A DNA stretch of 64,000 nucleotides from the NCBI GenBank assembly GCA_964492965.1, contig CAZBME010000010.1:11031-75030 (forward strand), given 5' to 3'. How positions within the stretch are numbered: position 1 is the first letter of the stretch; each line of letters starts with the position of its first letter. Positions 5,148 through 61,948 of the stretch are shown piece after piece. This stretch comes from an uncultured Syntrophaceae bacterium. GTDB lineage: Bacteria; Desulfobacterota; Syntrophia; Syntrophales; UBA8958. A program made the translations under genes and the position numbers. Under the pieces are notes generated by a model. The model made no database searches. It saw only the letters and a program-made list of their open reading frames with translations, and was not told where the DNA came from.

Positions 5148-5315
5148 GTTGAAACCTTTGAATGTGTCATTTTACAATCGGGTTTGTCCTTAATCCCTCC
5201 GTATTATGACAAGGGAGTAAAGGCCAGGAATCAGAACTGTCCGCGGAGTACTAAGCAAAACCGGAAGCGGATTTCACCAGCGGCAAGCGTGCCGGAAAAC
5301 TCTCAGCTTGTAGAA

Positions 5316-5633
5316 TTATGATTTGGCCGGGGGGGCCTTGTTGGGGCAGAGATAACCTGCATGGGAAGAGATGAAGATGATTGTGTCTTTATGGGCGATA
5401 GGGGCCCACAAAGGGTAAACTGCCGCAAGGCCAAGAGAGACGGCCGTCATTGCCGGGACGGAATTGAGCTGTTTTTTGCTCATGGTTCCGGAAATAGACG
5501 TTTTGACCTTGCAGATGGAGCAGGATTTCAGCAAAAAAGCGTTGTCATGGTGATGGAAGGCCACGGCCACAACGGCTAAGAAGAAGCCGGAAAGGGCAAG
5601 TAATAGAATCTTTTTGATCATTGACTGATACAT
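5316..5633 (-). CDS. Small membrane-anchored His/Cys-containing hypothetical protein
   Basis: 105-aa ORF. A hydrophobic N-terminus (KKILLLALSGFFLAVVAVAF) is followed by HHHD and CSIC. It lies on the same strand, 168 nt upstream of the outer-membrane factor gene. No family recognised. Confidence 0.45.
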   Translation of the reverse strand: MYQSMIKKILLLALSGFFLAVVAVAFHHHDNAFLLKSCSICKVKTSISGTMSKKQLNSVPAMTAVSLGLAAVYPLWAPIAHKDTIIFISSHAGYLCPNKAPPAKS

Positions 5634-5854
5634 ATTGCTAGTGCTGCCTCGTTGCCCTCGTAAATTTGGTTGCCCCTACCATCTATATCAAAGGCCTGTC
5701 AAGGGATATCATCTTTGAGCCAAGGAGATCAATTTCTCTTAGACCTTCCTTTCTTGTGCAAAAAAGCATAGAAATTATGGCTTTTGATATCAAGGCAATG
5801 GGAGCGAAGATATCGATTGACAACGTCAGTGTCTAATTGTACATCACCCAGTAT

Positions 5855-5968
5855 ATAAAGGGGAGTAGCTTCCGTCGGGTGTTCCGTCGGGCCGCGTTCA
5901 CCAATACGGTGGAATTTCCACCTGGACGCGGCATCGTGACTGACGTTGAGATTGAGCAAGACCTTTAC
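5855..5968 (+). promoter_or_regulatory. yybP-ykoY (Mn2+) riboswitch aptamer
   Basis: AAAGGGGAGUAGC (5857-5869) and UUGAGCAAGACCUUU (5952-5966) are the two conserved halves of the yybP-ykoY motif. Internal helices are GCCGCGU/ACGCGGC (5891-5897/5926-5932) and GGUGG/CCACC (5908-5922). It lies directly 5' of a TerC-family gene, a classic target. A candidate promoter is TTGACA (5817-5822) N17 TACATC (5840-5845). Confidence 0.85.
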
Positions 5969-6011
5969 ACACAGCATCTTAAGCCATGCTGCGGGTAAAG
6001 GTCTTTTTTTT
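5958..6011 (+). terminator. Intrinsic terminator forming the riboswitch expression platform
   Basis: AAGACCUUUAC (5958-5968) pairs with GUAAAGGUCUU (5995-6005) and is followed by a U-run to 6011. The 5' arm is the 3' strand of aptamer P1, so the aptamer and terminator are mutually exclusive. Confidence 0.8.
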
Positions 6012-6040
6012 GCCCTGCAGCGGCAAATGGAGGAAGATCG

Positions 6041-6778
6041 ATGATTGACTTGGGTTCGTTAGGCCACATCGCTTTTACTTGGGAGTTTCTGGCCGCTGTG
6101 ATCAGTATCATTATGATCGACTTGGTTCTGGCCGGCGACAACGCCGTGGTGATCGCAATGGCTTGCAAAAACCTGCACGGCAGGGAACGTAAACTGGGAA
6201 TTATTCTAGGGGCGGGTGGCGCTGTTGTCATCCGGGTGGCCTGTACCTTTATGGTGGCCCAACTGCTCACGATGCCATTCATAAAACTGATAGGCGGTGC
6301 GGCGATCGTATGGATTGCCGTCAAGCTGCTCACCGACGGCGCCAAAGAAGATTGTCCGGAACGCGAGTGTTTAAGCCTCTGGCAGGCGCTATGGATCATT
6401 ATCGTGGCTGACCTGAGCATGGGCATTGACAACATGCTGGCCGTCGGCGCTGCCAGTCACGGCAACCTGATACTGCTTCTTTTCGGACTGGCCCTTTCAA
6501 TCCCCTTCGTGGTGTTCATGAGTGGTATGCTTTCTAAAATGATAGACAAGTATCCCCTTATTCTTTGGGCAGGCGCAGCGATCCTCGGCAAGGTCGGAGG
6601 TGAGATGATGATCACCGATCCATGGCTCCAGGGCCTATTGACCCCTCCCAAGTGGTTAGAATATGTCATGATTGCATTCTCGGTGGTCTTCATTTGCGGG
6701 GTGAGCAAGATGATCATACGCAAACGCAAGGCAGCGCTTTCGGGCGGACGTCCTGCCGTCATCGAGCAGGTGCTCTAA
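6041..6778 (+). CDS. TerC-family integral membrane protein (putative Mn2+/metal exporter)
   Basis: 245-aa polytopic ORF with the TerC-like LAGDNAVVIA and GIDNMLAV repeats. RBS GGAGGAAG lies 5 nt upstream. Confidence 0.9.
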   Translation: MIDLGSLGHIAFTWEFLAAVISIIMIDLVLAGDNAVVIAMACKNLHGRERKLGIILGAGGAVVIRVACTFMVAQLLTMPFIKLIGGAAIVWIAVKLLTDGAKEDCPERECLSLWQALWIIIVADLSMGIDNMLAVGAASHGNLILLLFGLALSIPFVVFMSGMLSKMIDKYPLILWAGAAILGKVGGEMMITDPWLQGLLTPPKWLEYVMIAFSVVFICGVSKMIIRKRKAALSGGRPAVIEQVL

Positions 6779-6901
6779 AGGTTATCATGCAGCGACAACC
6801 AAGAGAAGAACAGGTGTCCTTGGCTACCGTACAGGCTATAATAGCTAACAGGCCTTTTAGTCCGATGACTGCAAAGTATCATAGAGAGAAGTGATCTTAA
6901 T

Positions 6902-8443
6902 TTAAGTGTCCACAATAGTATTAAGGCCTCTCGCCATGACAAAAAACGGCGCATGATTGGACGTAAAAACGGGCGGGTCGCGCTTCAGGATGGCGGCTGT
7001 CACGGGATGGCGCTTGAACTGCCGGTCCAGGAAATGCCGGATTTGCGGACGATTCCAGCCCTGCGGGTGAACAAAATCCTGATACAGGGACAGATCGCCG
7101 TCATAGAAATCCCTCGTTTCCAGGTCCCCGGCGGAATCGATGGGCAGGTTGAAAATCGCCACATTCAGAAAGTCGATGAACTCGCCGTGACGGGCGACAA
7201 AATCCAGGGTTTTCCCGGCATCATGCGGTGTTTCCGGCGGCGTTCCGAAGAGAAGATAGACGTAGGTGGCAATACCGGCTTCCTTCAGGGTTCTGAGGAC
7301 GAGGGAGGCCGTCTCCAGATCAATCCCCTTATGAAGGCCGTTCAGGACATCCTGCGACCCCGATTCGAGGCCCAGCTTAAGCATGACGCAACCCGAATTT
7401 TTCAGGCGGCGGCAAAAATCCCCGTCTGCCAGATGATCCGTGATGCGGACGAAGCCGTACCAGGGGACGCCGATGCTCCCGTTTGAGAGCGCCTTCAGTA
7501 GGGCCGGGCTCATGGCATTATCCAGAAAATGGATCAGGGAGGGCTTTTCTTTCATTGTTAACACTTGAAGGTCCGCCATCACCTGATCTGCGGGAATGGG
7601 GTTGTAGGAATTCCCCTCCGCCGTCTCCGGGCAGAAGGAGCACTTCCGCCAGTAGCAGCCCTGCGAGGCGCTGTAGGGCAGCACGACAGGGGGCGACAAA
7701 TAGTTCGGCAACAGGAATGCGCTGTAATCGGGACCTGTCGCCGACCCGTCGTGGGATTTGCCGGCCATGGCCAGCAGGGGATTTTCTCCCGGTCCGGCGA
7801 TCAGGTCATCCACAAGCCCGGCAAAAGGGTTTCTGCCCTGCAGGCGTTTGTGCCATGAAGTGACCAGCCCGCCGCCGAGGACAATCCTGGCGGAAGGCGC
7901 CGCCTGATGGAGAAAACCGATCATGGCAAACGCGCACAAGGCCTGGCTGAGATAATTGAGGGATAACCCGATGATCCGGGGTTGTTCTTCCCGCAGGACG
8001 GGAAGCAGACGGTCACGGAAATAGGGATGAAAAGGATTTCCTTCCGGCCTTTGCGCGGCCCGGATCAGATCGGCGCTTCTGACGGGGGACAGAAGGCGAT
8101 CTTCATAATTGGCCAGGCCGATCTGAAGGCGGGCGTCCACTGTTTTTTCAAGAATCCGCGACAGATCTGAAACGGCGCGCCGATAGCGGTCCGGATGATC
8201 GTAAAGCGGCTGTGCCCGAAGGGCTTCCATGTGGGTTAGACCGTGGCGAAAGGCCCGCCGTGTCCAGGTATCGACGCCTGCGGTGGGTGCATTCCGCCCC
8301 TGAAGAAGATAGAGAAGCCCTTCCAGAGAGGCATCGATGACGCGATATGGAACGGCGTGATGCTTCAGGGCGCCGGCCAGTTTTGCAAGGCCCGCCGGGG
8401 CTTCGCCGGGTTTGCTGACGGGAGGGTGGATAAGAAGAATCAT
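6902..8443 (-). CDS. B12-binding-domain radical SAM enzyme
   Basis: 513 aa. The N-terminal MILLIHPP...LAKLAGALK resembles a cobalamin-binding Rossmann-like domain. The cysteine cluster is GCYWRKCSFCPE. Downstream is GCVMLKLGLESGS. It is the last gene of a four-gene operon. Confidence 0.8.
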   Translation of the reverse strand: MILLIHPPVSKPGEAPAGLAKLAGALKHHAVPYRVIDASLEGLLYLLQGRNAPTAGVDTWTRRAFRHGLTHMEALRAQPLYDHPDRYRRAVSDLSRILEKTVDARLQIGLANYEDRLLSPVRSADLIRAAQRPEGNPFHPYFRDRLLPVLREEQPRIIGLSLNYLSQALCAFAMIGFLHQAAPSARIVLGGGLVTSWHKRLQGRNPFAGLVDDLIAGPGENPLLAMAGKSHDGSATGPDYSAFLLPNYLSPPVVLPYSASQGCYWRKCSFCPETAEGNSYNPIPADQVMADLQVLTMKEKPSLIHFLDNAMSPALLKALSNGSIGVPWYGFVRITDHLADGDFCRRLKNSGCVMLKLGLESGSQDVLNGLHKGIDLETASLVLRTLKEAGIATYVYLLFGTPPETPHDAGKTLDFVARHGEFIDFLNVAIFNLPIDSAGDLETRDFYDGDLSLYQDFVHPQGWNRPQIRHFLDRQFKRHPVTAAILKRDPPVFTSNHAPFFVMARGLNTIVDT

Positions 8444-49034: not shown

Positions 49035-49631
49035 ATGATCAGGGATAGTATTCATATCAAAGAAAAACTGCTGGAAGTCGGCGCCGCCTTATTTTGCGAG
49101 CGCGGATACCATGGTACGGGTATCCAGGAAATTGTAGATGCCATGGGCGTTCCGAAGGGGTCTTTCTACAACTATTTCAAAAGTAAAGAAGGCTTTGCGG
49201 CTGAGATCGTAAAACACTATGCAAACCATGTCTCAGAGGCGTGGACGCTGTTGATTGCCCAGGGACCGGAGGATGACCCGCTTAAAATGTTGCGTAACGC
49301 TTTCGAGTCCATGATCCAGGGCCAGGATGCCTGCCCTGTCAAGACGGGCTGCCTGATCGGCAATCTGGCCGGAGAATTGGCGGAATCCAGCGAATTATGC
49401 CGTATCACCCTACAGTCAGTGATGGTTACGTGGTGTGACCGCGTGGCTTATCATCTTGAGCGCGCCCAGGTTCAGGGTACCGTACGCCGGGACATTAAGG
49501 CAGCGGAACTTGCCCAGTTCTGCTGGGATGCCTGGGAAGGCAGTCTTTTGCGCATGAAGATAGAGAACTCGACGGAGCCCATTCGCCACTGTGTTGCCCT
49601 CTTGTTTGATGTCTTCATGAAGCCAAAATGA
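49035..49631 (+). CDS. TetR/AcrR-family transcriptional regulator
   Basis: The HTH block is GYHGTGIQEIVDAMGVPKGSFYNYFKSKEGF. Confidence 0.9.
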   Translation: MIRDSIHIKEKLLEVGAALFCERGYHGTGIQEIVDAMGVPKGSFYNYFKSKEGFAAEIVKHYANHVSEAWTLLIAQGPEDDPLKMLRNAFESMIQGQDACPVKTGCLIGNLAGELAESSELCRITLQSVMVTWCDRVAYHLERAQVQGTVRRDIKAAELAQFCWDAWEGSLLRMKIENSTEPIRHCVALLFDVFMKPK

Positions 49632-49674
49632 TTTGGTTACTATTTTCATAATAAACAATCAAAGGAGAAAAGAC

Positions 49675-50832
49675 ATGTTGAAGTTCAGCTATCAAAACCC
49701 CACCAAGATTTTATTCGGACAGGGATGTATCGCAGGCATCAAGAAGGAGATCCCGAAGGGGGCAAAAGTCCTGATTACCTATGGGGGCGGCAGTGTCAAG
49801 CAAAACGGCGTTCTCGATGAGGTGAAGGCGGCACTGGAAGGATACGACTTGTCTGAATTCGGCGGTATCGAACCGAATCCCACCTATGAGACACTGATGC
49901 AGTGCGTCGAGCTGGTGCGCTCCTCAAAAATTGATTTTCTCCTTGCCGTTGGCGGCGGATCGGTGATTGATGGAACAAAGTTCATTGCGGCGGCAGTCCC
50001 TTACGAGGGAGAACCCTGGGAGATCCTCGAAAAATACGGCTTCGGGGTCAAGCATGCCTTACCCTTCGGCACTGTTTTGACAATCCCTGCCGCAGGTTCC
50101 GAAATGAACAGCGGCGCCGTAATCACCAGAAAGTCTTTGCAGGCCAAACTTCCTTTTGCCAGCGCAGCGGTATTCCCGAAATTTTCAGCACTCGATCCGA
50201 CCAAGACCTATACGCTGCCGGGCAACCAGATCAGCAATGGTGTCGTGGATACCTTTATTCATATCGTGGAACAATATATCACCTATCCGGTTAATGGAAA
50301 GGTCCAGGATCGCTTTGCGGAGGGGCTGCTGATGACCTTGATCGAAGAAGGTCCGAAAGCCCTGCAGGAACCGGAAAATTTCGATATCCGGGCCAATCTG
50401 ATGTGGTGCGCCACCATGGGCCTCAACGGGCTCATCGGTGCAGGCGTACCCCAGGATTGGTCAACCCATATGGTTGGTCATGAAATTACGGCCTTGCATG
50501 GTGTGGATCATGCCCGGACGCTGGCCGTCGTCCTGCCTGCGATGCTGAAAGTACGCAAGGAAGCGAAACGACAGAAGCTGCTGCAATACGCCGAGCGTGT
50601 CTGGGGATTGACGGCAGGGGATGAAGACAGTCGAATCGATGGGGCCATTGAAAAGACACGTGAATTTTTCGAAGGAATGCAGGTGCGGACCCGTCTCCGC
50701 GACTATGGCATTACCGCCGACAGTATCCCCGTTCTGCTGGAACAGCTGAAAAAGCACGGCATGGTTACTCTCGGTGAGCGTCGCGACGTTACGCCCGAGA
50801 CGATTCGTGAGGTCTTGGAGCTCTGCCTGTAA
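49675..50832 (+). CDS. yqhD: Iron-containing NADPH-dependent aldehyde reductase/alcohol dehydrogenase, YqhD type
   Basis: It is near-colinear with E. coli YqhD as I recall it: ILFGQG...VLITYGGGSVK, FGGIEPNPTYETL, AVGGGSVIDGTKFIAAA, QDRFAEG, GAGVPQDWSTHMVGHE. Start placed at ATG 49675 behind AAAGGAG. Confidence 0.88.
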   Translation: MLKFSYQNPTKILFGQGCIAGIKKEIPKGAKVLITYGGGSVKQNGVLDEVKAALEGYDLSEFGGIEPNPTYETLMQCVELVRSSKIDFLLAVGGGSVIDGTKFIAAAVPYEGEPWEILEKYGFGVKHALPFGTVLTIPAAGSEMNSGAVITRKSLQAKLPFASAAVFPKFSALDPTKTYTLPGNQISNGVVDTFIHIVEQYITYPVNGKVQDRFAEGLLMTLIEEGPKALQEPENFDIRANLMWCATMGLNGLIGAGVPQDWSTHMVGHEITALHGVDHARTLAVVLPAMLKVRKEAKRQKLLQYAERVWGLTAGDEDSRIDGAIEKTREFFEGMQVRTRLRDYGITADSIPVLLEQLKKHGMVTLGERRDVTPETIREVLELCL

Positions 50833-50934
50833 GAACCCTGTGCCGGGTTGATTTGCACGTTTCCTGCAGGGAAATCGCTTTATAACGACGCTATGGCCGC
50901 TTGTAAATGGGCCGATAAAAATAAGGATTTGAAT

Positions 50935-51759
50935 ATGGGTCTTTTTGTGATCGATCAGGAAAAATGTAAACGTGACGGCATCTGTGTGAAAGATTGCCCG
51001 GCCCAGGTGATGGCCATGACTGATAAAAACGCCTTCCCGACGCCGATAGAGGATGCCGAGGAGTTCTGTATCAACTGCGGGCACTGTGTGGTTGTATGCC
51101 CTCATGGCGCCTTAACGCTCTTGACCATGTCTCCGGATGGATGTTCTCCCCTGCAAAAGGATCGCCTTCCCGGACCGGAGGCCATGGGGCAGCTTTTAAG
51201 GGCGAGGCGTTCCATCCGCCAGTACAAAAAAGCACCCGTACCCCATGATCTCTTGGAGGACCTGATTGATACGGCCCGCTATGCGCCCACGGGGAGCAAT
51301 AAACAGCAGGTGCACTGGACGGTTTTTGAAGACCCGGCGGCTCTGAAACGCTTTGCAGCAATGGTGATCGATTTTACAAGGCAGAACCTTCCGGGAATTG
51401 AGGATGCGGACATGGTCAGGCGCATGGGTCGCATCATCACCGCCTGGGATAATGGTAAAGACCGGATCCTGCGCGGGGCGCCGAACTTGATCCTGGTGCA
51501 TTCCCCGGCCGACCTGCCTTTTGCCGAGGCGGACTGCGTGATCGCCCTGACCTACCTGGAACTCTACGCCTATGCCAAAGGACTGGGGACCTGCTGGGGC
51601 GGCTATTTCACGGCAGCGGCCAATTTTTATGCACCCCTGACCGAAGCCTTAAGGTTGCCCGCAGGGCACCAATGCTATGGCGCGGTCATGTTAGGCTACC
51701 CGAAAACCGGCTATGAGCGGATTCCGCAAAGAAATGCACCGCTGGTTAGCTGGCGGTGA
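50935..51759 (+). CDS. Nitroreductase-family protein with N-terminal 2x[4Fe-4S] ferredoxin domain
   Basis: The ferredoxin motifs are CKRDGICVKDCP and CINCGHCVVVCP. The nitroreductase fold follows (RRSIRQY, APTGSNKQ). Confidence 0.85.
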   Translation: MGLFVIDQEKCKRDGICVKDCPAQVMAMTDKNAFPTPIEDAEEFCINCGHCVVVCPHGALTLLTMSPDGCSPLQKDRLPGPEAMGQLLRARRSIRQYKKAPVPHDLLEDLIDTARYAPTGSNKQQVHWTVFEDPAALKRFAAMVIDFTRQNLPGIEDADMVRRMGRIITAWDNGKDRILRGAPNLILVHSPADLPFAEADCVIALTYLELYAYAKGLGTCWGGYFTAAANFYAPLTEALRLPAGHQCYGAVMLGYPKTGYERIPQRNAPLVSWR

Positions 51760-51914: not shown

Positions 51915-52976
51915 ATGAAGGACGTTTATCAACGATTGGCGGAGTTTCTTGACACCTTTCCCCAGAGGTATCCGCTCCATACGGAAACGGGAATTGAGCT
52001 GAAAGTCCTGAAGCACATATTCTCGCCTGAGGATGCGGAAATGGTGATGAAGCTCACCCCGATGCCGGAAACGGCCGCGGAGGTTGCCGGGCGCATCGGG
52101 GCGGATCCGGAAAAAACCGAGCAGATGCTCTTTGAGATGTCCCATAAGGGGCAGATTTTTCGTATTGGGAAAGCCGGGAGTTATAAATACATGGCAACGG
52201 CATTCCTGGTGGGGATCATCGAGTTCCAAATGAATCGCATGACTCCCGAATTTGCCAAAGACATGGCGGAGTTTGGGCCGATTCTGTTCGAAAACACCTG
52301 GATGAAAGGAAAAACGAGAGACCTCCGGACAATCCCTATTTCTGAAAGCGTGGACTCGGACGCCCAGGTCATGCCCTACGAAAGCGCCGAGGCGGCCATC
52401 AAATCGGCCAAGTATATCGGCGTTTCCGATTGTATGTGCCGGAGACAGAAAGAGCTTCTGAACGAGCCATGCAGCAAGCCGATGGAGGTGTGTTTTCATT
52501 TCGGCAGCGGTGTGCATTATTTTGTGGAAAACGGTATGGGGCGCTATATTGGACAGGAAGAAGCCCTTGCCATACTGAAGAAAGGCGAGGAAGCCGGCCT
52601 CGTCTGTCAGTTGAGTTCCTCCCAGAATGCCGTCGCCCTTTGCATGTGCTGCGACTGCTGCTGTGGGCCCCTTATCGCCTATAACAAATACGAAAAACCC
52701 TCGGAGATGGTCAACAGCAGCTTCTTTGCCCGGGTGAGCGAAGACGGCTGCATCGGCTGCGAGCTCTGCGAGGAGCGCTGCCCCATGGACGCCATTTCCA
52801 TGGATGATGTCGCCCATGTCAACCTGGACCGCTGCATCGGCTGTGGCGTCTGCGCCGTCACCTGTCCCACCGAGGCCATCAAGGTCTTCAGGAAAGACAG
52901 GGAAAATGAATTCGTCCCGGAAAAAGACCTGTTCACGGCGACCATGGCGATCCATCAGCAACGAAGGGAAATATGA
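51915..52976 (+). CDS. Cysteine-rich Fe-S protein with C-terminal 2x[4Fe-4S] ferredoxin motifs and a winged-helix-like N-terminus
   Basis: The ferredoxin motifs are CIGCELCEERCP and CIGCGVCAVTCP. Extra Cys clusters are CMCRRQ...C...C and CMCCDCCCGP. RBS AAAGGAG. Confidence 0.75.
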   Translation: MKDVYQRLAEFLDTFPQRYPLHTETGIELKVLKHIFSPEDAEMVMKLTPMPETAAEVAGRIGADPEKTEQMLFEMSHKGQIFRIGKAGSYKYMATAFLVGIIEFQMNRMTPEFAKDMAEFGPILFENTWMKGKTRDLRTIPISESVDSDAQVMPYESAEAAIKSAKYIGVSDCMCRRQKELLNEPCSKPMEVCFHFGSGVHYFVENGMGRYIGQEEALAILKKGEEAGLVCQLSSSQNAVALCMCCDCCCGPLIAYNKYEKPSEMVNSSFFARVSEDGCIGCELCEERCPMDAISMDDVAHVNLDRCIGCGVCAVTCPTEAIKVFRKDRENEFVPEKDLFTATMAIHQQRREI

Positions 52977-53006: not shown

Positions 53007-53684
53007 ATGGAATTAAAAGATGCCATCAGAAAACGGATAAGTGTCAGAGGCTACAAGAAAGATCCCGTTCCCAAGACAATTTTGAGTGAGATCATTGAGG
53101 TCTCTCTGCGGTCGCCTTCGGCGATGAATGTTCAACCCTGGGAGATCACCGTGGTCGCCGGGGAGCCTCTGGCCCAACTCTGCCGGGAGAATATGGCGTT
53201 GCTCCGGGGCGGGCAGATGCCGGGTCCCGACCTGGGGCATGCGAAACCCTATGAGGGGGTGCACAAGGATCGCCAAAGGACTTTGGGATTTGAGCTATAC
53301 GGTCTCCTGGGCATCGCCCGGGACGATAAAGAGAAGAGAAATGAATGGATGATGACCGGTTTTCGCGCCTTTGACGCGCCGGCTATTCTTATTGTATCGG
53401 CAGATGAGAGCCTGGAAGCCAGGCTGGCGGCCTCGGATATCGGGGGGCTGATTCAGACCATCTGCCTGACCGCTCTGGAATACGGCCTCGGCACCTGCAT
53501 CAACGGCCAGGGCATCCTGTTTCCCGAGGTGGTGCGAAAGGTGACGGGGATTCCTGTCTCTAAAAAGATGTATATCTGCATCGCCATCGGTTATCCCGAC
53601 TGGGATCACCCGGCCAATAAGCTGATCAGTGCCAGGGAATCCCTGGAAAACGTCGTGAACTGGGTGGGATTTGAGAAAAATTGA
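53007..53684 (+). CDS. Nitroreductase-family protein
   Basis: 225 aa with RISVRGY, SPSAMNVQPW and LEYGLGTC. RBS AAGGAGGAGG. Confidence 0.88.
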   Translation: MELKDAIRKRISVRGYKKDPVPKTILSEIIEVSLRSPSAMNVQPWEITVVAGEPLAQLCRENMALLRGGQMPGPDLGHAKPYEGVHKDRQRTLGFELYGLLGIARDDKEKRNEWMMTGFRAFDAPAILIVSADESLEARLAASDIGGLIQTICLTALEYGLGTCINGQGILFPEVVRKVTGIPVSKKMYICIAIGYPDWDHPANKLISARESLENVVNWVGFEKN

Positions 53685-53724
53685 TTCTGACCATGATCTC
53701 ATTCTGAAGGAGCATAACTGAACC

Positions 53725-56136
53725 ATGAATATAAAAGAAAATCTTATTCATACCGCCCTGGGTGACGGCATGATCGACAAAGACGGCGCCGCCGTGGCCG
53801 TGGCCCGGATGGACGTGAAAAAATCCTACAGGGGAACGGGGCCCCTGCTCCAGAAAGTCATCCGCGACGCCGATGAAGCGTCCTGGCATGACATCAGGGC
53901 AAAGATCGATTATACCTATGAAAACATCAATGCCGCCCTCACCGCCCTGGAGAAGGAGACGGGGTTTCTTACCCTCCTGCGCGAAAGGCTCGCTCTGGGC
54001 CAGAAGCTTCTCTTCAAGCCGAACCTGGTCAGCACGGAGAATATCGACCCTTATACCTACGGTTCCTCCCCGGGGAGCACGGGCAATACAGAATGGCCCT
54101 TCGTGGCAGCCGTCATGCGCTGGTTCCACGACAAAGGGGGCATCAGCTACTACCGGATGTGCATCGGCGAGGCCGCCACGGCCCTGTCCAGTGTTGCCGC
54201 TCACTACCGCCAAATCAAGACGGCGGGAAGACCCGTGACGACGGAGGCTGTTATCGAAGGGCGCTCCGATGACTTCTACGGGGGCTGGGGCTTCTATTTC
54301 GTCCGCCGGTATCTTGCCGAGGTATCCGATACTTCGATGGGAGACGATCCCATGCAGGGTCTGGAAGAAAGCATGGCGGGCATCTATCTTCCTCCGGGCA
54401 AAGTGGCGGACAAGCTCATGGTCTACGACCTGAACCGGATCTGCGACGACCCCTCAAAAGGACGGGATATCCCCGTTCCGAATGGCGAGAATTTTGATTC
54501 TCTCATTCTCCATAAAGTCATCATCGGCGGCGATCCTTCCGATCCCGCTGATCGGTCAGATTACCCGGGATGCGTTCTTGTCAACCTGCCTCGTCTCAAG
54601 GTTCATGCCCAGGCCCTCTTTACCAATATCATCAAAAATCTCGGCATCGGCCTCTACCCCATGGAAGTCTCCCGTTCCAGCGGCTGTGCCTGGGAATATG
54701 CGACGCCCCACCGGAAGATTCCGGGGATGAAGGGCGCCATCCCTCACCAGGTATGGGTTCCGGAGATGGACCCCGTCACCTGCCTTCCCATGAGAGGTGC
54801 TGACGGGCGCTATCTGGTGAAGAAGACGGGCGGCCTGACGGGAACCATGATCGATATCATTGCCGCCGTGGCACACCAGGACATTTTTATGATGCACATC
54901 GTGGACGCCGTGGAAGGCATCAACCGGGATCATCAGGGTCAAGGCCTGGGCATCAAGGAACCCGAAGGTCTCGTGATAGCAGGCATCGACCCCGTGGCGG
55001 CGGATCTTTTTTGCGCCCGCTACATGTTCAGCAATGTGGGCCTTAAAGAGGCTGAGGAGAGTGGTCTTGATGATGGCATGGGCGGGTATTTCCCCCAGGC
55101 CGTTCCCGTGCCGCGCTATGACGGCCGGGCGATTGTCACCGAAAAAGGCTATGACAGCCCCCTGCGCAGGGATTACTGTTTCGAGCGGGCGGAGCGGCGC
55201 GGTCTGGGAAAACGCTCCTATTATGTGGTCGGCCATGATGGCATCACGGGGCACCCCCTGGCCTCCTTCCGCGGTCGTCTGGGCTTTGTGGAAGGGAGCC
55301 GGTTCAGTGAAATTGTCACCAGTGCCCTTTATTCCGACACCTACAAAATGCCCTGGGATCTGCAGAAGACATTTTTCGGATACATGGATGCCGTTGACAC
55401 GCTGGAGGGGACATCCCGGAAGCGCAGCTTTCTCGACGCCTTCGACGAAACGGGCGACGGTACCGTGACCTATGAGGAATACGGGAAGAAGGGACTCTAC
55501 GGGCCAACCAATATTTTGGGCGGTCTCAACATGAGCACCAAGGCGGAAGAAGATGAATCGGAACCCTTCCGGGCCTTCTACGCCATGCTGTCAAACGTCC
55601 CGAGGTGCTCAAACCCCAAGTGGAACCCCGAGGGGCACGACTTCACCAGAGAACAGGTGTATGGGCTGGTAACCGTTGTCGCCCAGATGATGTCCCAGTC
55701 GCCCAAAGAGGAAGAAGATCCCTTTGTTGCCGGCCTCCTGTGGGGGAAAGGGAAATGGCCCAGCTATGCCCTGGCTTTCGATCGGTACATCAAACAGGTC
55801 CTTTATGGATGGAAATTTCCCGCCAGGATCGGGATATCGAGCCTCTACGGGAGCGCTTGCGCGTTTGCCGATCACCGGCAGAACGGCCGGACCCTCCTTG
55901 GCCATGTCCGCGGTGTCCCCGATCCCGAGGCGGCGCAAAAATATGTGGAGGCTGTGCGGGAAGGCCGCATGAAGCCTCTGGATTTCACATTTTATACACT
56001 TCCGGGCTATGGCGGGAGCCATCTTCCCAATGTGGAGGAGTCCTCCGACCCGGCAAAAGTGCTCACGGTCGTCTTCGAAGGGGAAACAAAACGGTGGCCC
56101 GACCCAAGAACGGATGACCTGGAATCTAATTCATAA
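53725..56136 (+). CDS. Large (803 aa) DUF362-like protein with insertions and an unassigned ~330-aa C-terminal region
   Basis: Three blocks are what I associate with DUF362: LLFKPNLV, NLPRLKVHAQALFTNIIKNLGIG and VDAVEGINRDHQG...GLVIAGIDPVAADLFCARYMF. They are spread over ~450 aa. The C-terminal part contains an EF-hand-like loop, DETGDGTVTYEE. Confidence 0.6.
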   Translation: MNIKENLIHTALGDGMIDKDGAAVAVARMDVKKSYRGTGPLLQKVIRDADEASWHDIRAKIDYTYENINAALTALEKETGFLTLLRERLALGQKLLFKPNLVSTENIDPYTYGSSPGSTGNTEWPFVAAVMRWFHDKGGISYYRMCIGEAATALSSVAAHYRQIKTAGRPVTTEAVIEGRSDDFYGGWGFYFVRRYLAEVSDTSMGDDPMQGLEESMAGIYLPPGKVADKLMVYDLNRICDDPSKGRDIPVPNGENFDSLILHKVIIGGDPSDPADRSDYPGCVLVNLPRLKVHAQALFTNIIKNLGIGLYPMEVSRSSGCAWEYATPHRKIPGMKGAIPHQVWVPEMDPVTCLPMRGADGRYLVKKTGGLTGTMIDIIAAVAHQDIFMMHIVDAVEGINRDHQGQGLGIKEPEGLVIAGIDPVAADLFCARYMFSNVGLKEAEESGLDDGMGGYFPQAVPVPRYDGRAIVTEKGYDSPLRRDYCFERAERRGLGKRSYYVVGHDGITGHPLASFRGRLGFVEGSRFSEIVTSALYSDTYKMPWDLQKTFFGYMDAVDTLEGTSRKRSFLDAFDETGDGTVTYEEYGKKGLYGPTNILGGLNMSTKAEEDESEPFRAFYAMLSNVPRCSNPKWNPEGHDFTREQVYGLVTVVAQMMSQSPKEEEDPFVAGLLWGKGKWPSYALAFDRYIKQVLYGWKFPARIGISSLYGSACAFADHRQNGRTLLGHVRGVPDPEAAQKYVEAVREGRMKPLDFTFYTLPGYGGSHLPNVEESSDPAKVLTVVFEGETKRWPDPRTDDLESNS

Positions 56137-56179: not shown

Positions 56180-58138
56180 ATGAAAACATTAGAACATCTG
56201 CTGGCCCCCCTGCGGGTCAAGTCCATGAATATCCCCAACCGGGTCGTCATGCCGCCCATGGGAACACGTCTGGGCAACAATGACGGCACTGTCAGTGAAG
56301 CGACCCTGGCCTATATGAAGCGCCGGGCCCGTGGAGGCGCCGGGCTGATCATTACGGAGATTACGGAAGTCCACCCCCTGGGCTCTGTATCGCCCCAATG
56401 TCTGGCGGTGTGGGATGACCAATTCATTCCGGGGCTTGCAAAGCTTGCCGCTGTGGTCCATGCCGAAGGCGGCAAGATCGCCATGCAGCTTCATCATTGC
56501 GGCCGCGAGAGTCTGTTCCAGACCCAAAGGAAGACAGCCGTCGCCCCCTCGGCCATCCCGAGCTACATCTACGGCATGCTCGGAACGCCCAAGGAGATGA
56601 CTCTGGAAGACATCCGGGAGACCATTGCGTCCTTCGGCACCGCGGCCGTTCGTGCCAAGGCCGCAGGCTTCGATGCCGTAGAACTCCACGCCGCCCACGG
56701 CTACCTCCTCATGCAGTTTCTCTCGGCCCATTCCAATCAGCGGACCGATGCATATGGCGGTGACTTCCGGGCCCGGGCCCGATTTATGATCGAGTGCCTG
56801 GAGGAGGTCCGCAGGCAGGTTGGGGAAGATTTTCCCGTCTTGATCCGCATCTCCGCAGAGGAATGCATCGTGAACGGCTATAGTGTCTCCGATATGCAGA
56901 CGATCATCCCCGATCTCGTTTCCGCCGGCGCGGATATGATCAACGTCTCCTTCGGCACACACGCCAGTGCTGCCGTCAGCGTCGATACGCCGAATGCGAG
57001 CGCTCCGATTGAATATGAACAGGGATTCAATGTCGGCCTGGCCCGCAAGATCAAAGACGTGGCAGGAGTGCCCGTCATCGCCGTGGGCCGTTTCACGGAT
57101 CCTTATGTCATGGATGAAGCCATTGCCCGTGGTGATGCGGACATGATCGCCGTGGCACGCCAGCATCTGGCCGATCCCGATTTCCTGAAAAATGCCATGG
57201 CGGGACATTTGGAAGATACGAGCGAATGCCTCGCCTGTAACCAGGGTTGTATCGAACGGCTCATCCTGGAGCAGCAGTCGGTGCGTTGCGCCATCAACCC
57301 CGAAACGGGGCAGGAACTGATCTATCCGACACAGCCGGCGGCCGTTTCCCGGCAGGTGTGGGTAATCGGGGGCGGTCCGGGCGGTCTTACCGCGGCCTAT
57401 GAGGCGGCGAGGCTCGGCCATCAGGTCATTCTTTTCGAACAGGAAAAGGAGACAGGCGGGCAGATACGTTTTGCTGAAAAGGCCCCCCATAAATCAGCCT
57501 ACGGCATGTGGATCAGGACCCTTACGGCCAAGTGCCGGAAGAGGGGCGTCGATATCCGGACGGGAACGGAAGTTACGGAAGACATGATTGTCCAGGGAAA
57601 CCCCGATGTCGTCATTCTGGCCATCGGCGCCGACAAGTCCACCTGTCCTGCCGAGGGCATGTCATCCTCTGTTGTCTGCGATGCCTGGCAGATCTTGAAT
57701 GGCGAAGTCGCCCCCAAGGACCATGTCGTTGTCATCGGCGGGGGGCTCGTGGGTATGGAAACAGCGGATTTCCTCTGCGCGAAGGGTGTCAAGGATGTTA
57801 CCCTGGTCGAAATGCTGGCCGTTCCGCCTGTGCCGCCGGTCTCGGCGCATGGCAAAATGCTGCATCGGCGCCTGGGAGCTGCCGGGGCCAAGCTGATGTT
57901 CAACACGGCCGTCCAGGCCATCGAGGAAGGGTCGATCCTGGTCAGCACCGAGGGGAAAGAGCGAAGACTGGAACCCGTCAACCAGGTCATCGTGGCCGTC
58001 GGCGTCACTCCCCGCAACACTTTCAAGGACATGCTTCGGGAAAAAGGCATCCGTCACTTCATCATCGGCGACGCCAGCTCTGCACGGCGTATCATCGAGG
58101 CCACAACAGAGGGGGCAAAGGCGGCCTGGGACATTTGA
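56180..58138 (+). CDS. Old-Yellow-Enzyme-type flavo-FeS oxidoreductase with C-terminal FAD/NAD(P) domain (2,4-dienoyl-CoA reductase / 2-enoate reductase family)
   Basis: The OYE barrel carries PNRVVMPPMGT and HAAHGYLLMQFLS. The [4Fe-4S] motif is CLACNQGC...C. The dinucleotide folds are VIGGGPGGLTAA and VVIGGGLVGMETA. Start placed at ATG 56180 behind AAAGGAG; the ORF-track start 56009 overlaps the previous gene. Confidence 0.88.
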   Translation: MKTLEHLLAPLRVKSMNIPNRVVMPPMGTRLGNNDGTVSEATLAYMKRRARGGAGLIITEITEVHPLGSVSPQCLAVWDDQFIPGLAKLAAVVHAEGGKIAMQLHHCGRESLFQTQRKTAVAPSAIPSYIYGMLGTPKEMTLEDIRETIASFGTAAVRAKAAGFDAVELHAAHGYLLMQFLSAHSNQRTDAYGGDFRARARFMIECLEEVRRQVGEDFPVLIRISAEECIVNGYSVSDMQTIIPDLVSAGADMINVSFGTHASAAVSVDTPNASAPIEYEQGFNVGLARKIKDVAGVPVIAVGRFTDPYVMDEAIARGDADMIAVARQHLADPDFLKNAMAGHLEDTSECLACNQGCIERLILEQQSVRCAINPETGQELIYPTQPAAVSRQVWVIGGGPGGLTAAYEAARLGHQVILFEQEKETGGQIRFAEKAPHKSAYGMWIRTLTAKCRKRGVDIRTGTEVTEDMIVQGNPDVVILAIGADKSTCPAEGMSSSVVCDAWQILNGEVAPKDHVVVIGGGLVGMETADFLCAKGVKDVTLVEMLAVPPVPPVSAHGKMLHRRLGAAGAKLMFNTAVQAIEEGSILVSTEGKERRLEPVNQVIVAVGVTPRNTFKDMLREKGIRHFIIGDASSARRIIEATTEGAKAAWDI

Positions 58139-58225
58139 AGCATTTTATTTTTAAGCCTGTGCAATGATAACCAGGTGCAAAGCCCGCAAATGCCTGAACA
58201 AAAGTACCGTTGATTGTTATCTAGG

Positions 58226-58669
58226 ATGAGAAGAAATATGCAAAGAAGAACGGATCTTTCAATTTTTGGATTCTTGGTGCTTGTCTTGTTTTGGACAGCG
58301 ACACAAGTGATGGCCTCCGACCTGAACGGTCAGATGCGCAAAGGTGCTTACTCTGACAATTCCCATAGGCAACTGGCGCAGACGGACTCGAAAACGGCAG
58401 GTACCCCCCAAATATCAAAACATGCCGGATCAGGCATTAAATGCGTCAGCTGTCACGGAACGGGTCAGCAACAAGAACGAGTGACCATGGCCAAATGTCT
58501 CCAGTGCCATGGCAGTTACGAAAAACTGGCCAAAGCCAGCAGTAAGTTAGATCCGAACCCCCATGCCTCCCATGAAGGACAGGTCCGTTGCGGGTTATGC
58601 CATGCGGAGCATGGAAAATCGGTTCTTTCCTGCAAGGAGTGCCATGTCTTCGAGATGAAAGTCCCGTAG
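58226..58669 (+). CDS. Tetrahaem c-type cytochrome with N-terminal signal/anchor
   Basis: Four CXXCH motifs are present (CVSCH, CLQCH, CGLCH, CKECH). The hydrophobic N-terminus is LSIFGFLVLVLFWTATQVMA. The start is ambiguous (58214, 58226 or 58238). Confidence 0.85.
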   Translation: MRRNMQRRTDLSIFGFLVLVLFWTATQVMASDLNGQMRKGAYSDNSHRQLAQTDSKTAGTPQISKHAGSGIKCVSCHGTGQQQERVTMAKCLQCHGSYEKLAKASSKLDPNPHASHEGQVRCGLCHAEHGKSVLSCKECHVFEMKVP

Positions 58670-58817
58670 ACGGCTTTTCCCTTTGCCAGAGATAAAATGA
58701 AAAGCGACGATTGTTGCTGGCTCGCTTCCTATGGTGGGAGTACTAAAGGAAGGCCTGAAAACAGTATTTTGAAATATAGTCAATTCGCAATAAATAACCA
58801 AGGAAAGGAATACCATC

Positions 58818-60389
58818 ATGATCGAAAAGAAGAGCATTAGCAGACGTAATTTTCTTAAAACGGCGTCGATCAGTGCCGGTGTAGTGGCCCTCGGCGGTCT
58901 AACCGATACGACGGCCATCGCCGAGGCTGCCGCAAAAAAAGGCAAATGGGACAAAACCGTTGATGTTGTTATCGTCGGCTACGGCGGTGCGGGGGCGGCC
59001 GCTGCGATCACAGCCCATGACGCCAAGGCCAAAGTCCTTATTGTCGAAAAAGGAGAGGCCGGTGGGGGTTCCACGAATTATTCCGGAGGGTTTTTTGTAA
59101 GCCCCCGTGACGTGGACGGTGCAGTAAAATATCTGCTGGCTTGCGCCAAAGCGGCTGATAACCAGTTTTTTGACGTTGATCAGGAAGGTCTCACCGTCTG
59201 GGCAAAAGAGGCTGTACAGAATGAATCATGGGTCAAGGGCCTGGGGGCAAAGGAAGTCTTTATATCTCTCAAAGGCTGGTACGATACAGAGGGCGCCGCA
59301 TCGTACACGGCCTGTCAGGTCAAACCCAACCCGACAGGGGTGGGGCTCTGGACCGTCCTTTCCCAAGCCGTAAACGACCGGAAGATCGAGATCCTTTACA
59401 ACGCTCAGGGAAGTGATCTGGTTGTTGACGAAGGGAAGGGAGGTGCCGCTCCCGAGGTTCGGGGCATCATCGTCAAAGTCGGAAATAAAAACGTGGCCAT
59501 TCAGGCGAAGAAGGCCGTTATCCTGACCTGCGGAGGCTTTGACTATGATGAAAAAATGAAAAAAAACAATCTTTTCCCGTACCCGCTATACTCTACCGGC
59601 CATTTAGGCAATACTGGAGACGCCATCAAGCTGGCGGCAAAAACCGGTGCGGATCTGTGGCATATGAACCTGGTGCCGGGGGTCATGACCCATAAATTCC
59701 CCGAGGTTCCCGTTGCCTATCCTTCCATGATCCAGCTTCGGGCAACTAATATGCCGATGATTCTCGTCAGTAAATACGGCAAACGATTTACCAATGAGGC
59801 GATGACCTCTTACGATGCAGTCGTCAGGGGTTTGCATACCTATGACGCGAACAAGCGGGAATTCCCTAATCTCCCCTGCTGGACTATTTTTGACGAGAAG
59901 GCGCGGACCTCGGGACCTGTCGGTGTCGGCGTGCCTATGGGGAAGCCTGTTTACACCTGGAGTCGCGATAATTCGGAAGAAATCGCCAAGGGCTGGATCA
60001 TCAAGGCAGACACCATCGAGGAGCTTGCCCGCAAAATCGATATCGATCCTGCTGTACTGGCCAAGACCATCGAAACATACAACAGCAACTGTGTTCAGGA
60101 AAAAGATCCCGATTTCGGCCGCAAGAAGGGCCTGATTCCTTTGGTAAAGGCCCCTTACTATGCTGTCAAGGGCTATCCCGGTTGCTGGGCAACGGGAGGA
60201 GGACCGAAGATCAATACGAAAGCCCAGGTGATGGATACCAAGGGCAATGTTGTGCGCCGGCTCTATACGGCAGGCAGCGCCTCCACTTTTGCTGCGGCCT
60301 TCCTCTATCCTCTGAGCGGCACGGCCATTGGAGATTGCTTTGCCATGGGTCGGATTGCGGGACGAAACGCTGCCGCTGAAAAAGCATAA
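58818..60389 (+). CDS. Tat-exported FAD-dependent reductase of the fumarate-reductase/KstD flavoprotein family
   Basis: The twin-arginine signal is SRRNFLKTASISAG. The FAD fold is VVIVGYGGAGAAAAITA...VEKGEAGGGSTNYSGG. The C-terminal block is LYTAGSAS. Confidence 0.85.
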   Translation: MIEKKSISRRNFLKTASISAGVVALGGLTDTTAIAEAAAKKGKWDKTVDVVIVGYGGAGAAAAITAHDAKAKVLIVEKGEAGGGSTNYSGGFFVSPRDVDGAVKYLLACAKAADNQFFDVDQEGLTVWAKEAVQNESWVKGLGAKEVFISLKGWYDTEGAASYTACQVKPNPTGVGLWTVLSQAVNDRKIEILYNAQGSDLVVDEGKGGAAPEVRGIIVKVGNKNVAIQAKKAVILTCGGFDYDEKMKKNNLFPYPLYSTGHLGNTGDAIKLAAKTGADLWHMNLVPGVMTHKFPEVPVAYPSMIQLRATNMPMILVSKYGKRFTNEAMTSYDAVVRGLHTYDANKREFPNLPCWTIFDEKARTSGPVGVGVPMGKPVYTWSRDNSEEIAKGWIIKADTIEELARKIDIDPAVLAKTIETYNSNCVQEKDPDFGRKKGLIPLVKAPYYAVKGYPGCWATGGGPKINTKAQVMDTKGNVVRRLYTAGSASTFAAAFLYPLSGTAIGDCFAMGRIAGRNAAAEKA

Positions 60390-60625: not shown

Positions 60626-61948
60626 TCAGTAAAAAAGGAAGGGCCACCAGTTTTTCATGGGTTTGCCTTGCACATCCTTTTGCCGGTTATCCAGTCCGGG
60701 GAAGTTCTGCCGCCAATAGATCAGCCATGGCCCCATGCAATCAGGCGCGAGTTTGTGATAAGGAGAAAAGGCTTTGCTGTTCCAGGGCCGGGCGAGGTCT
60801 CGCCCATCTGGGCCGCTGCCGATTCGCCAGTCTTCGATGGTCGACATGACGCTTCGCTCGCCCTGTAAATCGTAATGGAAACGGCCATTGGGGATGAAAT
60901 GGACGTTGCCGCCATGGGCGACGTAATTGTCCAGAGTGATTCTGTTTCCATCACGGGATACGACAGCTGTCTGGGATTCGGGGAAATCGATGCGATCCCT
61001 GGGATTGAGGGTGTAGAAGGAAGCCCAAGGAAATTGGGGATAGCGCTGGTTCAGGTTCATGTCGGCAAAGTCTTTAAAATATCGGCTGAGATAGGGAATG
61101 GCTTCTGATTTTGCCGTCCCTTCGAAGCCGTGACAGAGACCTTCTATGTAGCAGCCGATACCGCGCGAGGCATTGACGAATCCGATCCGCAGACTGCGGC
61201 CGGTCCATTTCTGTGCGGCATCACCGCCATTGCCCGCCTGCACCCAGTGCTCACCGATGCGACGGAAATCATCGTCATAGCGCGGTTTTTCTTCCACTAC
61301 TTCATAGGCGCGAAGATTTTCGTCATGTTCGACAAAAAACCAGAGTTCATGTACGTAGCCCTGCTCGACCAGTTCATCGAGGCGCAGGAAGCGGGACGGC
61401 ATTTTCGGATTGCGAACTCCGTAATAGCGGGCGAATTCATCGCTGAAGAAACGGTTGTAGTCTAGGTTGAAACCCGGATTCATGCCTGCCTTGAGAGGAA
61501 GCCTTTCAGAGTTTCCTCCGCCGGCAGCCACATCTCGAAGGTCAACAAACCTGAATAGTTGATACTGGAGAAAAACCGGCGCAGACTTATTTTTATAGCC
61601 CTGATAGCGGCTGCCTTCGGCCAGTGATGCGATGATCGCGTCAAGCATCCGGTCGAGATGATCGCGCCTGGCCCGGTTGGAAAAATTCAGCACCAGCAGC
61701 CGTGGCTTCATCAGCCGGATCAGGTCGTGATTTTCAACCAGCCAATGGTCGCTATTGGCACGGCTGAACCGGTTCGGCCAGACGGCAAGATCGGCGGGAT
61801 CACCTGCAGGGGTGGAAAGGGTTGCTGCATGAATACACGGTGCACAGGGCAGCAGTGTCATTGCGCAAAGTAAAAGCGCCAGAGCAACATGGCACCGGTA
61901 TTTCCAGAAGAGCATGCCCGTTAATTTGTCAATGCCTGGTTCTCCCAT
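60626..61948 (-). CDS. Secreted hypothetical protein (440 aa), no family recognised
   Basis: The hydrophobic signal-like N-terminus is VALALLLCAMTLLPCAPCIHAA. The C-terminus is KNWWPFLFY. The start is ambiguous (61948 or 61915). Confidence 0.6.
   Translation of the reverse strand: MGEPGIDKLTGMLFWKYRCHVALALLLCAMTLLPCAPCIHAATLSTPAGDPADLAVWPNRFSRANSDHWLVENHDLIRLMKPRLLVLNFSNRARRDHLDRMLDAIIASLAEGSRYQGYKNKSAPVFLQYQLFRFVDLRDVAAGGGNSERLPLKAGMNPGFNLDYNRFFSDEFARYYGVRNPKMPSRFLRLDELVEQGYVHELWFFVEHDENLRAYEVVEEKPRYDDDFRRIGEHWVQAGNGGDAAQKWTGRSLRIGFVNASRGIGCYIEGLCHGFEGTAKSEAIPYLSRYFKDFADMNLNQRYPQFPWASFYTLNPRDRIDFPESQTAVVSRDGNRITLDNYVAHGGNVHFIPNGRFHYDLQGERSVMSTIEDWRIGSGPDGRDLARPWNSKAFSPYHKLAPDCMGPWLIYWRQNFPGLDNRQKDVQGKPMKNWWPFLFY

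Follow-up and report, generated by a model that had tools for sequence, protein, structure and literature searches.

A discrete long form of DUF362 with a predicted LarA-like fold, a candidate calcium-binding loop and a patchy distribution among anaerobic bacteria and archaea

DUF362 is among the commonest uncharacterised protein families in anaerobes. One unusually long member is encoded in a 64,000-nucleotide (nt) stretch of contig CAZBME010000010.1 (GCA_964492965.1) from an uncultured Syntrophaceae bacterium; this stretch is called the window below, and all coordinates are counted within it. The gene product is an intact, soluble, cytoplasmic protein that belongs to a discrete branch of DUF362 of about 800 amino acids (aa), referred to here as the long form, and no reaction is assigned to it. 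On balance, the long form is probably an enzyme built on a LarA-like alpha/beta fold, and any specific chemistry is put forward with far less confidence. The family is already binned as DUF362 in databases. New here are the delimitation of the long form, an alignment of its full core that places the insertions, a family-wide EF-hand, a C-terminal domain that is a fold orphan, predicted transfers between domains of life, and a negative result for the nickel-pincer cofactor that extends to canonical DUF362. The gene and its ribosome-binding site lie as follows.

53725..56136, + strand: long-form DUF362 gene, 803 aa plus stop (open reading frame (ORF) and translation).
53707..53712, + strand: Shine-Dalgarno sequence AAGGAG, 12 nt 5′ of the ATG (direct sequence reading).

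A gap of 43 nt separates the stop codon from the next gene, which has its own AGGAG.

A first-pass annotation of the window had described a DUF362-like protein with large insertions and no ferredoxin domain, and both descriptions are borne out. The Pfam profile PF04015 (DUF362) matches at E 1.5e-11, with 45.2 bits against a cut-off of 24. This match covers residues 284-432 and profile positions 101-200 only, the kind of partial pattern that long insertions in the first half would give. The entire core was recovered by hhalign from 64 long-form and 33 canonical DUF362 sequences, which aligned residues 87-505 with canonical residues 29-266 at a probability of 98.5% (E 2e-15). The aligned portion amounts to 238 of these 419 query residues, and the remaining ~180 are insertions located roughly at 153-245, 327-369 and 440-480. 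The canonical profile consisted of 33 diverse proteins taken from genomes of the same phylum. These genome-drawn copies were used in place of a homologue search from one canonical DUF362, whose listed matches were all 72-78% identical and offered no diversity. Earlier shallow profiles were too weak, with a probability of 77% from four sequences and 0.2% from a two-sequence LarA profile; the 33-sequence profile settled the DUF362 side.

No characterised family was assigned to the whole protein, in keeping with its earlier description as an uncharacterised enzyme candidate. Pfam scans gave no match to a Fer4 family and none to Lar_N/DUF2088 (PF09861) at E<=1, and the sole NCBIfam match was meaningless (E 0.17). 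AsbB (E 0.096), the sole match when the protein and the family profile were searched against PDB sequences, was dismissed as noise. The core and its signature residues, counted by column in the 64 homologues, are listed here.

53983..55239, + strand: complete DUF362 core, residues 87-505, with ~180 residues inserted (hhalign and PF04015).
54016..54024, + strand: K98-P99-N100 signature, in 64/64 homologues (column counts; the same KPN occurs in canonical DUF362).
54169..54171, + strand: E149, Glu in 63/64 and Asp in 1/64, aligned with the conserved canonical Asp78 (alignment and column counts).
54598..54645, + strand: K292-x-H294-x9-K304-N305-x-G307, every named residue invariant (column counts).
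54730..54747, + strand: K336...H341 (K in 62/64, H in 64/64), candidate counterpart of canonical K165-x3-H169 after an inserted loop (column counts and spacing).

All three blocks by which the first-pass annotation recognised the family are invariant in the 64 homologues: K98-P99-N100, K292-x-H294-x9-K304-N305, and the third block with D394 and D427. H135, H263 and H403 are likewise invariant. The conserved canonical set, numbered after the copy at locus L084, comprises K40 (of KPN), D78, K142, H144, K154, N155, G158, K165 and H169. H341 may be the counterpart of canonical H169, a pairing favoured by its nearly canonical spacing and its invariance. Altogether, five invariant or near-invariant His residues and many invariant Asp, Glu, Lys and Arg residues persist among homologues that are 45-92% identical, which favours a catalytic role over a scaffolding one. 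Cys is invariant in no column, and at several of the columns where it is partly conserved the window protein has none. Together with the missing Fer4 match, this excludes an iron-sulphur (Fe-S) cluster in the long form.

Canonical DUF362 proteins have in common with the long form the whole core, the KPN and K-x-H-x9-K-N motifs and the later Asp. Both occur mainly in anaerobes, and both are found in genomes without nickel-pincer biosynthesis. Their architectures differ. Canonical proteins of 280-420 aa usually end in a 2x[4Fe-4S] domain or have a Tat signal, whereas the long form has neither, is double in length, and adds the ~180 inserted core residues, N- and C-terminal extensions and an EF-hand. 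Within the core, canonical Asp78 has become Glu149, and canonical K165-x3-H169 is displaced or replaced. The sampled canonical paralogues measured 282-420 aa and had an eight-Cys ferredoxin motif in 29/33 cases. Canonical copies were present in 53 of 61 sampled genomes of the phylum, with up to 12 in a single genome.

The long form is sharply delimited. A word-indexed search returned 873 relatives, and nearly all of the best 120 measure 790-830 aa and are 53-92% identical over 95-100% of the query; the named relatives among these 120 are labelled 'DUF362 domain-containing protein'. Full-length homologues measure 795-820 aa and are 45-92% identical to the window protein. When 1.84 billion cluster representatives were searched exhaustively with phmmer, 269 clusters (50% identity) matched at E<=1e-3. 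These comprise the long form, its fragments and some variants of 830-950 aa, and no canonical DUF362 was reached from the long form in that search at that threshold.

Among GTDB species genomes, at least 162 loci hold a relative. The bacterial carriers include Syntrophales/Smithellaceae, Desulfatibacillum (with the cultured D. alkenivorans DSM 16219), Desulfarculus, Desulfobacterales, Dehalococcoidia, Methylomirabilales and Sandaracinaceae, and the archaeal ones include Promethearchaeota, Hodarchaeota, Odinarchaeota and Bathyarchaeia. Within the window's own class, a full-length copy was found in 9 of 301 genomes, and a genome of the same genus lacks it. Archaea occupy at least three positions in a maximum-likelihood tree. 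Eight Asgard sequences are nested among deltaproteobacterial ones, two Promethearchaeota fall within the window's clade, and one Bathyarchaeia sequence lies within Dehalococcoidia. This patchy distribution and the scattered archaeal positions point to an accessory gene that has been horizontally transferred among anaerobes, including several apparent transfers between domains.

Some genomes carry more than one copy. One Thermodesulfobacteriota metagenome-assembled genome (MAG) has a tandem pair of full-length genes (L026:2543-4942 and 5038-7473), and several genomes have two or three unlinked copies, for example L020, L023 and L067 from one MAG. With these tandem and unlinked copies, the family forms paralogues, probably with different substrates. 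Shorter ORFs of ~335-364 aa, with open frames of 351-364 aa, represented by L120:2136-3143(+) in genome G150 and by similar ORFs in G055 and G233, match only residues 51-305 of the long form (E ~1e-60). In the G150 copy, the one inspected, KPN has become RPA, KVH has become LEK, and the second half is gone. These short ORFs are degenerate truncated paralogues or pseudogene remnants.

The long form was modelled with AlphaFold2 from 38 homologues, giving a pLDDT of 91.2 and a pTM of 0.91. Outside the core, three features stand out.

53725..53982, + strand: N-terminal extension, residues 1-86 (~90 residues), three short beta strands followed by helices (outside the hhalign match; model).
55330..56133, + strand: C-terminal domain, residues ~536-803 (~300 residues past the core), mostly helical with a small sheet (model).
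55444..55479, + strand: EF-hand loop DETGDGTVTYEE, residues D574 to E585 (PS00018 in homologues, Pfam, model).

The ~330 C-terminal residues that the first-pass annotation left without an assignment have indeed no known relative in the searches made. Pfam scans of this part in 42 members found nothing besides EF-hand families. A separate model of residues 436-803 (pLDDT 89) found no fold relative when searched against the PDB with Foldseek, the best probability being 0.08.

The same annotation had noted an EF-hand-like loop with Thr at position 3, and the family makes a stronger case than was claimed. Of the 64 homologues, 40 satisfy PROSITE PS00018 in its strict form, always in the D574 column. 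In shuffled sets of the same sequences, the mean was 0.225 matches per set and the highest count was 2. At loop position 3, Asp (30) and Asn (24) together account for 54/64 sequences, and Thr for nine; the family consensus reads D-E-[D/N/T]-G-D-G-[IV]-[VI]-[TS]-Y-E-E. The Pfam family EF-hand_1 matches 25 of 42 members at E<=0.01, with a best value of 1e-5. In the model, a helix (565-573) leads into the loop (574-582), after which a short helix begins at 583. The window's clade characteristically has Thr in this place: it contributes eight of the nine sampled Thr sequences, and it is this clade that adjoins a FadH/OYE-type gene. Family-wide, then, the sequence evidence supports a genuine EF-hand at 574-585. 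It resembles EF-hand proteins (PS00018, EF-hand_1) in having the same 12-residue loop between two helices, and differs from them in being single, unpaired and set inside a prokaryotic enzyme domain.

The only meaningful Foldseek matches in the PDB are LarA-like structures, namely 9q3k_A (probability 0.97, E 6.9e-3) and two 9q3j chains (0.85 and 0.80). DUF362 and the DUF2088 domain of LarA are placed in the same Pfam clan, CL0471 (PMC11770544). The conserved LarA core consists of a catalytic His, a Lys that tethers the cofactor and a His that ligates Ni (PMC12611868). Spacing of the central motif is similar in the three groups compared. The window genome's two LarA homologues have H166-x9-K176-x4-G181-x10-H192, compared with H-x9-K-x3-G-x10-H in canonical DUF362 and H294-x9-K304-x2-G307 in the long form. 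The long form shares its predicted fold, its clan and the His-x9-Lys spacing, with a Gly after it, with the LarA superfamily of 2-hydroxyacid racemases and epimerases, which depend on the nickel-pincer cofactor (NPN). It departs from them in lacking a Lar_N match, in not keeping the first catalytic His, and in its far larger architecture. Glu149 stands where that His would be expected, a placement made by motif order and not by alignment; hhalign of the long form against the two LarA homologues, with a two-sequence profile only, gave a probability of 0.2%.

LarA is the sole structural relative, so a natural assumption is that DUF362 proteins are hidden nickel-pincer enzymes. This was examined phyletically through the presence of LarC and LarE in carrier genomes. 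The window genome has both, along with its two LarA homologues. In three carriers that are each 100% complete (G074, G116 and G184) and in a fourth that is 88% complete (G241), LarC is absent at E<=1 and no LarE match passes the cut-off; in G184, LarE exists only as a fragment broken by a stop. LarC accompanies the long form in 5/9 full-length carriers of the class, against 158/301 (52%) class-wide. It is present in 41/50 GTDB carriers against 178/201 (89%) in the phylum sample, a comparison in which the 50 carriers include Chloroflexota and archaeal genomes and the base rates are those of the phylum sample only. The 82% among the 50 carriers had the look of an enrichment, which the phylum base rate of 89% dispels. 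Canonical DUF362 behaves in the same way, with two to six copies in at least 15 complete genomes of the class that lack LarC. Long-form presence, in short, does not track LarC or LarE, and the test argues against a nickel-pincer role for long and canonical proteins alike.

The window gene is embedded in a cluster of genes on the same strand, listed here with the profiles that identify them.

49035-49631, + strand: TetR-family gene, AcuR-like (NCBIfam 147 bits, below the cut-off of 247).
49633-50832, + strand: iron-containing alcohol dehydrogenase (Fe-ADH), YqhD-like (NCBIfam 628 against 645 bits).
50848-51759, + strand: Fer4-nitroreductase (Pfam Fer4 and nitroreductase).
51915-52976, + strand: 353-aa Fe-S protein (Pfam Fer4, 2x[4Fe-4S], over the last 80 residues only).
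53007-53684, + strand: nitroreductase-family protein (Pfam nitroreductase).
56180..58138, + strand: FadH/BaiCD-type Fe-S flavoenzyme (Pfam Oxidored_FMN and Pyr_redox_2; NCBIfam BaiCD 546 bits, below the 825 cut-off).
within 58214-60389, + strand: small c3-type cytochrome, first of a pair (Pfam Cytochrom_c3_2, 67.6 against 25 bits; weak Cgr1 match).
within 58214-60389, + strand: Tat-signal flavoprotein of the flavocytochrome-c/KstD/vinyl-phenol-reductase type, second of the pair (TIGR01813 190.5 bits, below 285.45).

The first 270 residues of the 353-aa Fe-S protein match no Pfam family, and a 440-aa ORF beyond the cluster, at 60626-61948(-), has no Pfam or NCBIfam match. The resemblance of the TetR regulator to AcuR, which responds to acrylate, and of the next gene to YqhD-type aldehyde reductases suggests an operon that would respond to an acrylate- or acrolein-like electrophile. 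The cytochrome and Tat flavoprotein resemble a periplasmic C=C reductase of the Cgr1/Cgr2 kind, added on to the cytoplasmic cluster.

Neighbour counts were taken by clustering the ORFs around 80 loci and are given over 81. The gene order of the window is kept only in its closest relatives (L001-L003), and no neighbour is universal across the 81 loci. The commonest recurring one is a FadH/OYE-type reductase, found in 12/81 loci and directly adjacent in 8. Other recurrent neighbours include an Opp/Nik-type ABC transporter with SBP_bac_5, an alpha/beta-hydrolase, the acetoacetate-decarboxylase family, BKACE, acyl-CoA dehydrogenase, thiolase, enoyl-CoA hydratase, acyl-CoA synthetase, a GlcD/GlcF-like dehydrogenase, an LCIB-like carbonic anhydrase and canonical DUF362; MFS transporters occur as well. 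The first-pass annotation had pointed to an Fe-S protein encoded two genes upstream, which could stand in for the missing ferredoxin domain, and had placed the long form at the centre of a redox cluster. Neither idea holds as a general rule. The Fe-S family is found in only 7/81 loci (including the Promethearchaeia locus L039), and neighbours range widely over hydrolases, decarboxylase-family proteins, beta-oxidation enzymes and transporters, in operons of a catabolic or detoxification type. Such variety fits a self-contained enzyme recruited to different organic-acid and CoA-ester pathways, and not a fixed subunit of a redox complex. In two Promethearchaeota loci (L008 and L014), a gene of the LCIB-like beta-carbonic-anhydrase family (PF18599, E 2e-32) lies directly downstream, a possible hint of CO2 or bicarbonate chemistry.

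How the protein might work can be weighed against these results. If the long form worked with NPN as LarA does, Lys304 would be the cofactor tether, His341 the Ni ligand and His294 the catalytic base, and hydride shuttling would serve to racemise, epimerise or isomerise a hydroxy or keto acid. The exclusive fold match to LarA-like enzymes and the common Pfam clan speak for such a role, as does the His-x9-Lys spacing, which is identical to that of the genome's two LarA homologues and is followed by Gly and a later His. LarC and LarE are encoded in the window genome, GlcD/GlcF-type D-2-hydroxyacid dehydrogenase genes lie directly upstream of the long form in two Dehalococcoidia loci, and NPN is known in folds other than that of LarA (PMC13524815). 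On the phyletic test, nickel-pincer dependence was nonetheless rejected. Complete carriers do without LarC and LarE, carriers show no LarC enrichment, and many genomes that have canonical DUF362 lack LarC; dependence of the long form on NPN is thus unlikely. With Lar_N unmatched and Glu149 at the presumed site of the first catalytic His (by motif order), we regard the LarA-like nickel chemistry as improbable. The shared His-x9-Lys motif most plausibly came with the fold by inheritance, and DUF362 would employ it for something besides NPN.

Two further explanations concern the partners and the additions of the long form. It could be the catalytic subunit of a ferredoxin-dependent redox enzyme, with the Fe-S protein at 51915-52976 or the Fer4-nitroreductase taking the place of the ferredoxin domain. 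Since 29/33 canonical proteins have a C-terminal 2x[4Fe-4S] domain, the fold is often coupled to electron transfer by Fe-S clusters. In the window, as in its closest relatives, the gene is flanked by genes for Fe-S proteins and flavoproteins, and an AKR-Fer4 protein or a canonical DUF362 is nearby in a few other loci. Most loci, however, have no Fe-S gene beside the long form, the 353-aa Fe-S family and the gene order of the window are as restricted as described above, and the long form itself has no conserved Cys or recognisable redox cofactor site; we consider this arrangement unlikely, though less so than the nickel-pincer one. Alternatively, the long form might be no enzyme at all: with its DUF362 fold dead, it would serve as a binding, sensor or scaffold protein that responds to Ca2+. 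Its conserved EF-hand, its large additions without catalytic annotation, and the degenerate truncated paralogues in related genomes, in which KPN and KxH are lost, would suit that role. Yet bacterial and archaeal homologues at 45% identity keep every signature residue, whereas the truncated paralogues have lost them, a contrast indicative of selection on a functional site. The gene also sits in enzyme operons rather than regulatory modules. A non-enzymatic function is accordingly given little credence.

The reading preferred here is that the long form is catalytic, since its signature residues are unchanged in bacteria and archaea alike and are missing from the truncated paralogues. The active site would be a cleft homologous to the cofactor and substrate site of LarA. 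There, His294, Lys304, His341 and Glu149, along with H135, H263, H403 and D394, would bind a carboxylate-type substrate, perhaps together with a directly bound divalent metal. The step would probably be redox-neutral, such as an isomerisation, a hydration or dehydration, the opening of a ring or ester, or a carboxylation or decarboxylation. In the window genome, the adjacent FadH/BaiCD-type C=C reductase would either take up its product or supply its substrate. Control by the AcuR-like TetR repressor is likely, given that the cluster lies downstream of the TetR gene on the same strand. The EF-hand is predicted most likely to bind a structural or regulatory Ca2+.

Taken further, and only tentatively, the long form could represent the first recognisable catalytic LarA-fold class without the nickel-pincer. 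In that scheme, the ancestral His-x9-Lys...His site would hold another cofactor or a direct metal, and a new Ca2+-binding EF-hand domain, itself a fold orphan, would exert control. The reaction would be an as yet unassigned part of how anaerobes break down or detoxify unsaturated or beta-oxo carboxylic acids, and the gene would have been passed repeatedly among Deltaproteobacteria-type bacteria, Dehalococcoidia and Asgard archaea.

Several points weigh against this catalytic account. A literature search found 14 papers that name DUF362, none of them on what it does, and to our knowledge no DUF362 protein has a known substrate, metal or activity. The proposal draws on conservation and genomic context, and the invariant residues are predicted to group in one cleft. 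The structural match to LarA is modest, with E 6.9e-3 and TM scores of 0.19 (query) and 0.30 (target), low values that are put down to the extra domains. In the hhalign alignment, canonical W168-H169 falls opposite W323 and the variable residue 324, and not opposite H341. The window's own EF-hand fails PS00018 through its Thr at position 3, and Pfam EF-hand models match it only below threshold (E 0.27-0.49). Finally, the neighbourhoods are so heterogeneous, with no universal partner, that no single pathway can be named.

These results bear on how DUF362 is approached. The negative nickel-pincer result redirects experiments toward other cofactors or metals. The long form offers a convenient entry point, as it is self-contained, has no Fe-S cluster, is confidently modelled and has a predicted Ca2+ site. 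It is also found beside enoate-reductase-type enzymes in apparently inducible operons of syntrophs, alkane degraders and Asgard archaea. Its reaction, once found, would annotate hundreds of genes and might fill a gap in anaerobic carboxylic-acid or electrophile metabolism.

Two observations relate canonical DUF362 to the nickel-pincer system. In the 61-genome phylum sample, LarC is present in 51/53 DUF362-positive genomes and in 4/8 DUF362-negative ones. This co-occurrence looks like an effect of genome size or lifestyle and not like dependence, because the complete class genomes without LarC described above still carry their DUF362 genes. On contig C45 of genome G000, a canonical DUF362-ferredoxin protein (355 aa, L085:1132-2196(-)) is encoded next to a LarA homologue (416 aa, L082:850-2097(-)). 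This adjacency of two CL0471 branches hints at a functional link for some canonical members.

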